A stretch of 4,874 nt of DNA from a virus (IMGVR_UViG_2703718811_000006:1-4874); one strand, 5' to 3'; counted from the stretch's first letter, positions 1,826 to 4,800 are shown. Numbers and translations are program-made. Notes: generated by a model not told the origin, from the letters alone.

Positions 1826-4800
1826 TCAGCTGATACTGATACCTGCTGTGGATTTCTTCATCACCACAACCAGCAAATCGCTGATACTTGCTGTGGGATA
1901 CCAGTTATTTACCAGCCATGCTGACACCGAAAACTCCAGCGTCACGTGGCCGCGACCAGCTGGCATATCAATAACACCACTGTAAATCAGCGTATTATCC
2001 AGCGCGGTACGGTTATAAATTTCAGCACCGTTTTTCCGTACTATCAGGCGGCATGACGAATAAATATCGTTATTCTCCCGCTCATGTTTAGCGCCGCTGA
2101 ATGCCACCGCCGGAATAACAATTTGCCTGTCAAAAGGCTGATCGTCATAAATCCTGACGGTAATGGTCCCTGATGGCCACCGCTCCGGTGCCCGGGAGTC
2201 CCGCGGGAAAGCCTTACCCACTGTTTTGACAATATCGCCTTCAATCTGGTTGGCTGACAGTTTCCCCTTAATCTGACAGTTCTCATTTATCGTGACGTTG
2301 TTGAGCGTCCCGGCGTTCGCATTCACACTGCCACTGATATCCGCATTTTTCGCCGTCAGCTTTCCGTCTGATGTCAGGGAAAATACCGGAGGACTGCCAC
2401 CGCTGGTAATGGTGGGGGCCGTCAGGCGTTTCAGGAACACGTCGTTCATGAATATCTGGTTGCCCTGCGCCACAAACATCGGCGTTTCATTCCCGTTTGC
2501 CGGGTCAATAAACGCGATACGGTTAGCGGCAACCAGGAACTGGCTCAGTTTACCGTCCTCCGTGTCCTCCATGCTGAGGCCAATACCCGCGACATAATGC
2601 CTGCCGTCTTTGGTCTGCTCAATTCTGACGCCCCACATGGCATTCCATTTATCACTGGCGTCTTTCCACTCTTTCGAAAACTCCTCCAGTCTGCTGGCGT
2701 TATCTTCCGTCAGGTCGACTTTTTCCAGCAGCTCCTTGCCGAGATGGGATTCGGTTATCTGGCCTTTGAAAAAATCCAGGTAACCTTCCGCATCATCGCT
2801 CGCCCGACCGACGGCCTCCACAAATGCCGATTTGCCAACGGTGTTCACACTGCGGATATAAAAGTAATAATCATGGCCCGGTTTGATATTGATACTGGCA
2901 GCTATCCAGTACAGCGCCGTGCCAAGATAGCGGGCTGTGGTTTCAACCTGCCTGATATCGGCAATCTGCTGTTCCGAAAACCAGAATTCAAACTGTACCG
3001 TCGGGTCATATACAGCCAGTTTCGGGACCGCCGTTATCTGAAAATACCCCGGTATCAGTTCAATGGTGGCAGGCGCTGCCGGGGCGTCAATCCGGAACGT
3101 GGTGGTGGCAGGTTCGCCCTGCTGGCCATAGCTGTTAATCGCCCTGACCGTCAGGGTGTATTCCCCGGGCGGCAGACCACTGAAACGGTGCGCCGTGTCT
3201 GCGGTGATGGCGGTGGTCACCAGGCGACTGTCATCCCCCCTTCCACTGGTCAGGCGCAGACTGAAGCTCACACCTTTCACCACCCGCGGTGTGTCCCACT
3301 TCGCCTGTGCCAGATACTGACCGTCAGCTGCACTCACCTCTACCGTGAGGTGCTGCACTGCCGGTGGAATAACGCTGTTCAGGGAGCCGGACAGCGGCTC
3401 AAAGCTGGCCCCGTTATCCACGATGGCTTCTTTTTCCGGTACGTGCTGCACTGCCGTGATGGCAAAGGTGCCGTCCGTGTTTTCCCGGATGGCGACACAG
3501 CGGAACAGGCGACGTCGAAGACCGGGAATTTTCAGTCCCCACACACCGTATGTCGCCACGCCATCAGGCAGGGCACTGACCTGTATCCGGGCAGGGGCCG
3601 GTTGTGCCGTGATGTCCACACTCACCGGCTTACCGCTGCCGTTAATCAGGTTCACCGTGGCGGTACCGGTCTGCGGAAGCGTCACCTCACGGTCCAGTGT
3701 CAGGGTGCGGCTGGCGGCATCGATGGACAGGACACGTCCGCCGGTCAGGGTCCCGGCATAGTCGTTATCACAGATTTCAATGATGTCACCGGGTGTGTGA
3801 CGCAGCCCCTGTGACCCGAGCGTGAAATCCACCGTCTGCGTTTCCAGCAGTCCGGTCTTTATCACCCACAGTCCGGCGCGATGAGCCTGACCGCGACTGG
3901 TACAGCCGAACGCGTCCATCTTCAGCAGGTTGCGTCCGTAGCGCAGTATGGCTTCCGGGTCTTCCACCAGTTCCGTGGAGGTCTGCCAGCCGTTCTGCGG
4001 GTCGGTGTAATTCACCTCCACCGCCGTGTGCCGGTCCTTCAGGGCACTGAAGCTGTAGCGGAACCCCACGCCGTTATCATCCACCACCACATCGCTGCTG
4101 GTGTACGGCCACACCACATCCGACGGGCGGTCCTGAACGAACGTCAGCGTCTGGCCGTTCCATACCGGCATACAGCGCATCGCCGAGCAGAAATCACTGA
4201 GAACGTCCCACGCCTTACGCTGTTGTGACAGGTATGCATTAAAGGTCATCCGCGGCTCTGTGCCCCCGAAGCCGTCCGGGACACGCTGGTCACAGTACTG
4301 CCCGATGGCATACAGCGCCCATTTGTCCACGTCCGCGGCCCCCAGACGTTTTCCCATCCCGTAGCGCGGGTGGGTCAGCATGTCCCACAGACACCAGGCC
4401 GGGTTGTTGCTGTATGCCGGTTTCAGACTGCCGTCCCAGATACCGCTGTAAGTGCGTTTTTCCGGGTCGTAGTTTGACGGCACCTGGATGATGCGACCGC
4501 GGATATGGTAGTTAACCGTCATCTGCTGGCCGCCGAACTGCTCCGCATCCACCTGCAGCCCCACAATGGCCGTGTTCGGGTAGCACTGTTTCACATCGAT
4601 GATTTCGGTGTATGACGACCACAGCGTTCTGTTCTGCAGCTGGTCCGTGGTGCTGTCCGCCGTCTCCCGGACCATCCGGATGTTAAAGGGACGGGGAGGC
4701 AGATTATCCAGAATCACCGACGCCAGAAACTGCGAGGTGGTCTTGCCGTTAATGGTGACATCCTTTTCCGTCACCCAGTTACCGTTACGCTGTAACTGAA

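Follow-up and report, generated by a model that had tools for sequence, protein, structure and literature searches.

A natural three-module J protein combines a lambda-type shaft with a receptor-binding domain of the VT1-Sakai/gpJ-1A2 class, for which OmpC is the probable receptor

Here, we present an analysis of the tip attachment gene J in a stretch of viral DNA of 4,874 nt (IMGVR_UViG_2703718811_000006:1-4874), which is referred to as the window. The C-terminal part of lambda J binds LamB and sets host range. An earlier note on this DNA claimed that the C-terminal segment matches lambda only in scattered motifs while the rest of the protein is highly conserved, and that the phage probably uses a different outer-membrane receptor or an altered LamB allele. 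The locus, therefore, raises two questions, namely what kind of receptor-binding domain (RBD) this J protein carries and which receptor the domain recognises.

Based on the ORF list, the alignment to lambda and Pfam, J, the gene for the tip attachment protein and central tail fibre, occupies positions 1826..4874 on the minus strand and is partial. Approximately 114 N-terminal codons lie beyond the end of the window; the 1015 codons inside it contain zero internal stops, and the stop codon is at 1826-1828. The C-terminal peptide quoted in the earlier note is the true C-terminus of this minus-strand ORF and begins at codon 2267-2269. The protein is collinear with lambda J over lambda aa 115-1132 with just three 1-aa gaps, and Pfam recognises, in this order, FNIII-A_GpJ, Phage-tail_3, Ig_J, Ig_J_second, Phage_Tail_Tip, and Ig_GpJ_C (E-values of 1e-29 to 1e-40). 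All three genes in the window are on the minus strand, and their order, J-lom-side fibre, is that of lambda (ORF list and Pfam). lom (1160..1759, minus strand), directly downstream of J, encodes an Ail/Lom outer-membrane beta-barrel of 199 aa (Pfam Ail_Lom at full length, E = 1e-116), and the side-tail-fibre-like gene (34..1095, minus strand; 353 aa) has matches to phage_tail_N and Collagen and contains Gly-X-Y repeats. By its six-family domain order and its position in the tail cluster (I-J-lom-stf), J in the window is a lambda-type tip attachment protein.

We aligned this protein to lambda J (NC_001416) using MAFFT and calculated the identity segment by segment. The amino acid identity is 79.8% over aa 115-981 and 93.5% over aa 750-981, and it drops to 44.0% over aa 982-1132, i.e., the last ~150 aa. 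What remains of the identity to lambda in this last part consists of short motifs (GDIVK, AFPR, WPSGT, DDxPFDRQIV, NGAxIY, DMPAGRG, and KKxxxGIS), and the divergence of the C-terminus stated in the earlier note is, thus, borne out by the alignment. It had been assigned to positions 1826-2280; however, it begins ~20 nt upstream of 2280, and the diverged segment comprises ~157 aa rather than 147-151. The accompanying claim that the rest of J is highly conserved holds for lambda aa ~768-965 only. Over lambda aa 115-750, the identity to window J is 74.8%, with 50-aa blocks down to 50-63%. The premise of lambda-likeness is only correct in part, given that a single recombinant module accounts for the lambda-like stretch.

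Using three-way informative sites, at which the window was compared site by site with lambda and the O157:H7 prophage VT1-Sakai, in combination with a two-breakpoint partition and sliding identity, we found that window J is a natural three-module chimera, in which a lambda-type shaft/straight-fibre block lies between hub and RBD modules of the VT1-Sakai type. Module 1 (2921..4874, minus strand; lambda aa ~115-767) comprises the hub and the FNIII/Ig domains and is of the VT1-Sakai/O157-prophage type, with 374 sites matching VT1-Sakai and 57 matching lambda. This module is ~75% identical to lambda overall, with 54-90% nucleotide identity in 90-nt blocks. Module 2 (2327..2920, minus strand; lambda aa 768-965) comprises the end of the last FNIII domain, the alpha-helical shaft and the central straight fibre (domain names for shaft and straight fibre after PMC11101478) and is of the lambda type, with 129 sites matching lambda and 10 matching VT1-Sakai; its identity to lambda is 95.4% at the amino acid and 84-99% at the nucleotide level, compared with only 54-94% nucleotide identity to VT1-Sakai. 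Module 3 (1829..2301, minus strand; lambda aa 974-1132) is the Ig-like RBD (Ig_GpJ_C) and is of the VT1-Sakai/gpJ-1A2 class, with 169 sites matching VT1-Sakai and 23 matching lambda. As a separate observation, the FNIII/Ig domains at 3164-3704 (lambda aa ~500-700) are the least lambda-like part of J outside the RBD (50-63% amino acid identity in 50-aa blocks). Within module 1, they are the least similar to VT1-Sakai as well (82% nucleotide identity in two 90-nt blocks), and they form a second variable zone of J.

The boundary between modules 2 and 3 is sharp. By the maximum chi-square method, the breakpoint is placed at lambda nt 2921 (aa 974), corresponding to window position ~2301 (chi-square = 230, far beyond chance), and the mismatch to lambda DNA is 6.2% across the 721 nt upstream of ~2301 and 42% downstream. 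Together with the two-breakpoint partition, this places the junction between the lambda-type fibre and the non-lambda RBD at 2301..2327 (minus strand; lambda aa 965-974). Most likely, module 3 was joined to the lambda-type shaft by homologous recombination at lambda aa 965-974. In the engineered gpJ chimeras of Brodel et al. (Nature 2024, PMC11338833), natural J C-termini were fused to lambda J at aa 964, and the natural junction adjoins this fusion point (at most 10 residues apart). A natural joining of a lambda shaft to an RBD of the 1A2 class this close to the site chosen by engineers supports that aa 964 is a permissive fusion point. We also noticed that the informative sites are mixed around the junction (~2230-2300) and that the first ~20 residues of the RBD are identical to those of the A8/phi330 class, while 1A2/VT1-Sakai has RVL...L there; this hints at an additional small exchange or a gene-conversion tract.

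Pfam Ig_GpJ_C, described as the C-terminal receptor binding domain, matches the window RBD at full length. Over lambda aa 975-1132, the RBD is 92.4% identical to that of VT1-Sakai J (database protein P0005), whose receptor is OmpC as judged from the matching 1A2 module, 65-66% identical to those of A8 gpJ and phage phi330 (receptor OmpC), 45.6% identical to that of lambda (receptor LamB), and 44.6% identical to that of phage 434 (receptor OmpC). These comparisons argue that the window RBD is a member of a separate, widespread allele class (VT1-Sakai/gpJ-1A2) and not a drifted lambda RBD. The gpJ 1A2 chimera is linked to this class by its C-terminal module, which corresponds to the J allele that prophage VT1-Sakai (Sp15) carries in E. 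coli O157:H7. Because the published 1A2 sequence is available as a machine-read supplementary PDF with base indels, for which tblastn gave shifted frames, we read it by a frameshift-tolerant protein-to-DNA alignment. Of the 152 residues that could be read, 146 equal those of the VT1-Sakai allele, and each of the six mismatches lies next to a reading error; given the indel errors in this text, the identity of 1A2 and VT1-Sakai stands at 96% of readable positions and is not proven to be exact. Like the 1A2 chimera, window J joins a lambda-type shaft to this RBD class near aa 964; unlike that chimera, it is natural, its N-terminal two thirds are not of the lambda type, and its RBD has 12 substitutions. 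These 12 differences from 1A2/VT1-Sakai, among 157 residues, are QIK/RVL at the junction, I23L, I50V, R74K, N76H, N77T, R116H, V119M, S150A, and S155T, of which R116H falls inside the conserved DMPAGxG loop.

The other characterised RBDs are more distant relatives of the same family. A8 gpJ and J of the Stx2a siphophage phi330 (PMC12502783), whose RBD is 98.7% identical to that of A8, share the fold, the OmpC receptor and a scaffold that is 83% identical to the window RBD; however, with 65% identity overall and only 33% in the hotspot loops described below, and with hotspot 1 of A8 being shorter by 4 residues and its hotspot 2 longer by 5, the window RBD lies outside the A8/phi330 class. Similarly, the lambda RBD (8XCJ/8XCK) shares the Ig_GpJ_C family, the fold, the position at the fibre tip and the J-lom-stf gene order, but its identity to the window RBD is 44-46% overall and 23% in the hotspot loops, and its receptor is LamB. 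The RBD of phage 434 belongs to the same family and targets OmpC (cited in PMC11101478); with 44.6% identity overall, 20% in the hotspots and several loop indels, it represents a separate class. The temperate phages PhiR55_1 and PhiR40_1, which are propagated on E. coli C and ECOR13, share the RBD class of the window. The Genome Research Chi paper and the SNIPE preprint contain no receptor data for these two phages, and their hosts fit the non-use of K-12 OmpC only circumstantially. A 2026 receptor-prediction preprint deals with Drexlerviridae GpJ tips, not with lambda-type RBDs.

In an analysis of 1207 J homologs, Maddamsetti et al. (Evolution 2018, PMC6646904) found that most variation falls within aa 960-1132, where entropy and indels peak at four hotspots (1012, 1048, 1077, and 1107), with a phylogeny of the specificity region that is distinct from that of the rest of J. 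The window J follows the same pattern of variation, for which that study left the receptors of the natural classes unassigned. We placed the hotspots by these published lambda positions and checked the coordinates by translation. Hotspot 1 (2174..2212, minus strand; lambda ~1004-1016, including 1012) is identical to 1A2/VT1-Sakai and diverged from lambda, A8, and 434. Hotspot 2 (2060..2098, minus strand; lambda ~1042-1054) contains three of the 12 differences from 1A2, i.e., R74K, N76H, and N77T. Hotspot 3 (1976..2014, minus strand; lambda ~1070-1082) and hotspot 4 (1889..1927, minus strand; lambda ~1099-1112, including 1107) are identical to 1A2. Altogether, 49 of 52 hotspot positions (94%) are identical to 1A2/VT1-Sakai, all three differences being in hotspot 2, compared with 12 of 53 (23%) for lambda, 20% for 434, and 33% for A8; the scaffold between the hotspots is 57-91% identical to all compared RBDs and 57% identical to lambda. 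As for the features that characterise a LamB-binding J, neither the contact loops L1-L4 nor the host-range residues at ~1012 and ~1107 are conserved in the window RBD.

We modelled the RBD using AF2 as a monomer without receptor (pLDDT 83.3); the homolog search had returned mostly fragments and several frameshifted pseudogene products, which were removed before structure prediction. In Foldseek, the only strong matches were J RBDs (9wca, 9wcb, 8xck, and 8xcj; E-values of 1e-16 to 1e-19, TMq 0.82-0.87). The model matches A8 gpJ in the closed state (9wca) and in the open state with OmpC G17 of EDL933 (9wcb) with a TMq of 0.82-0.84, and lambda J in the closed state (8xck) and with LamB (8xcj) with a TMq of 0.85-0.87, so that the predicted fold of the diverged C-terminus is that of the J RBDs. 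The lambda-LamB structure (PMC11101478) and the A8-OmpC complex deposited as 9WCB suggest, by analogy, that window J would trigger DNA ejection in the same manner. According to this model, the trimeric fibre would end distally in three copies of the Ig-like RBD, whose four variable bottom loops would enter a trimeric porin through its extracellular opening, as in the lambda J-LamB and A8 gpJ-OmpC complexes. Upon binding, the bases of the RBDs would spread, the straight fibre would twist, the helical shaft would flip, and the tail tip would open, leading to DNA ejection.

Which porin is bound is suggested by the membership of the RBD in the 1A2/VT1-Sakai class. Brodel et al. reported that the A8 and 1A2 chimeras move lambda delivery from LamB to OmpC and that A8 works on the OmpC of K-12 as well as that of EDL933, while 1A2 works only on OmpC of the EDL933 type and not on that of MG1655 (PMC11338833). 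In their source data, 1A2 particles gave 5.2% delivery into wild-type lamB+ MG1655 at an MOI of 50, compared with 97.7% for wild-type lambda at an MOI of 174, and 1A2 delivery was efficient once EDL933-type OmpC was supplied (PMC11338833). In later work, 1A2 served to direct a vector against STEC to OmpC, as its tip (bioRxiv 10.1101/2025.02.28.640725). Moreover, phi330 requires OmpC, failing on a strain that lacks ompC unless the gene is complemented (PMC12502783), which provides independent support for OmpC in the neighbouring A8 class, although A8 and phi330 use K-12 OmpC and 1A2 does not. Based on this class membership, we suggest that the receptor of the window RBD is quite likely OmpC of the EDL933-like kind; most likely, it is not LamB and probably also not K-12 OmpC. 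The expectation of a different outer-membrane receptor is, thus, supported and can be narrowed down to OmpC, given that the RBD is 92.4% identical to the VT1-Sakai allele that matches the OmpC-targeting 1A2. This reading presumes that the 12 substitutions leave the receptor unchanged, as we infer.

The alternative that survives best is that these 12 substitutions have shifted the specificity to another porin or outer-membrane protein, e.g., OmpF, or to a set of OmpC alleles that clearly differs. Hotspot 2 contains three of the substitutions and the DMPAGxG loop one; lambda J can gain a new receptor by as few as four substitutions and OmpF use by only a few (PMC6646904); and A8 and 1A2 already differ in the range of OmpC alleles that they accept. 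However, hotspots 1, 3, and 4 are identical to those of 1A2, the divergence from VT1-Sakai is mainly synonymous (dN/dS 0.12), and the changes are conservative or polar-to-polar (R/K, N/H, N/T, V/M, S/A, and S/T), and we consider such a shift improbable. There is a small chance that the 12 substitutions alter which OmpC variants are recognised, for instance by adding K-12-type OmpC, or add a second porin. If so, window J would be a natural host-range variant on a lambda-compatible shaft and directly usable to retarget lambda-based vectors.

The preferred reading, a functional OmpC-directed domain, also has to be weighed against the idea that the divergence reflects decay, i.e., that the RBD segment is a functionless relic drifting in a defective prophage. 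The closest genome, that of a bovine E. coli strain (NZ_AP042676), contains at ompW a prophage (18391-34823) with 99.5% identity to the window. In that prophage, gpJ is annotated with 3390 nt and J is intact, and tail assembly, K/L/M-like and tape measure genes lie upstream; however, its tail assembly gene T is split by ISEc12 (IS21 family), gpG is interrupted by an internal stop codon, only part of gpU is present and the side fibre gene contains a frameshift. The side-fibre-like gene in the window likewise appears truncated at its 3' end (34..1095, minus strand). The prophage of the closest genome is, thus, visibly degraded and perhaps defective, and window J may never be used. For the RBD itself, the comparison with VT1-Sakai gave a dS of 0.33, a dN of 0.04 and a dN/dS of 0.12, and the dN/dS of module 2 relative to lambda is also 0.12. 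The RBD is under purifying selection, and its mostly synonymous divergence argues for maintained domain function and against decay. Consistently, J has 1015 codons without a stop; thousands of genomes, and inducible Stx phages as well, contain the same module at 90-100% nucleotide identity; and, unlike in random decay, the differences from lambda cluster in the known specificity loops while the scaffold is conserved. Random decay is rejected based on the dN/dS of 0.12, leaving the relic reading very unlikely.

The remaining option of the earlier note, that the domain still binds LamB as a diverged, LamB-specific allele suited to a variant LamB, would fit the fold and the 57% scaffold identity shared with the lambda RBD, but we reject it as the least probable of the readings considered, given that identity to lambda is only 23% across the four hotspots that contact the receptor and that particles with the near-identical 1A2 RBD deliver poorly into lamB+ K-12 and efficiently with EDL933-type OmpC.

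The RBD module is common. Similar modules (at least 80% nucleotide identity) are present in 3831 of 5426 complete E. coli genomes, the best matches being mostly at 90-95% identity and those of three genomes at 100%, and in ~100 sequenced phages, most of which are Stx-converting; exact protein matches exist in NCBI (P0001 and P0002). The junction between the lambda shaft and the 1A2-class RBD (window 2150-2500) is found at an identity of at least 95% in ~350 E. coli records, and no record in the phage collection exceeded 90% identity across it. The finding is correct but already known because the phenomenon, the allele class and its receptor have all been published (the pattern of J variation in 2018 and the receptor of the class in 2024). 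It represents a textbook modular exchange of a host-range determinant in lambdoid phages and adds little new biology; its modest practical value lies in assigning, from sequence alone, OmpC rather than LamB as receptor to a very common prophage J allele.

With respect to the neighbouring genes, we made three additional observations. First, the side-fibre-like gene in the window has lost one T from a T-run at ~50-53 relative to the nearest genome (AGTTTACC vs AGTTTTACC). This deletion shifts the frame right after the SDKRNK motif, so that the protein lacks the intramolecular chaperone domain (Peptidase_S74) at its C-terminus. In the nearest genome, whose annotation marks the side-fibre gene as frameshifted, the gene has another 1-nt indel, at ~360; downstream of it, that genome contains a gene for a Gp38-like 'receptor recognizing protein'. 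The truncation in the window reflects either a pseudogene or an assembly error. Second, the collagen-like repeat region (123-888) contains long ORFs in four other frames (123..764 on the minus strand and 154..888, 173..802, and 306..755 on the plus strand), which look like artefacts of a G+C-rich, stop-poor repeat and not like genes. Third, a consensus scan detected hairpins that resemble intrinsic terminators, with T-runs on the coding strand, at two places: at 1789-1808 (minus strand), 18 nt past the J stop codon and ahead of lom, and at 1112-1133 (minus strand), past the lom stop codon and ahead of the fibre gene. These putative terminators suggest that lom may be transcriptionally insulated from the late tail operon.
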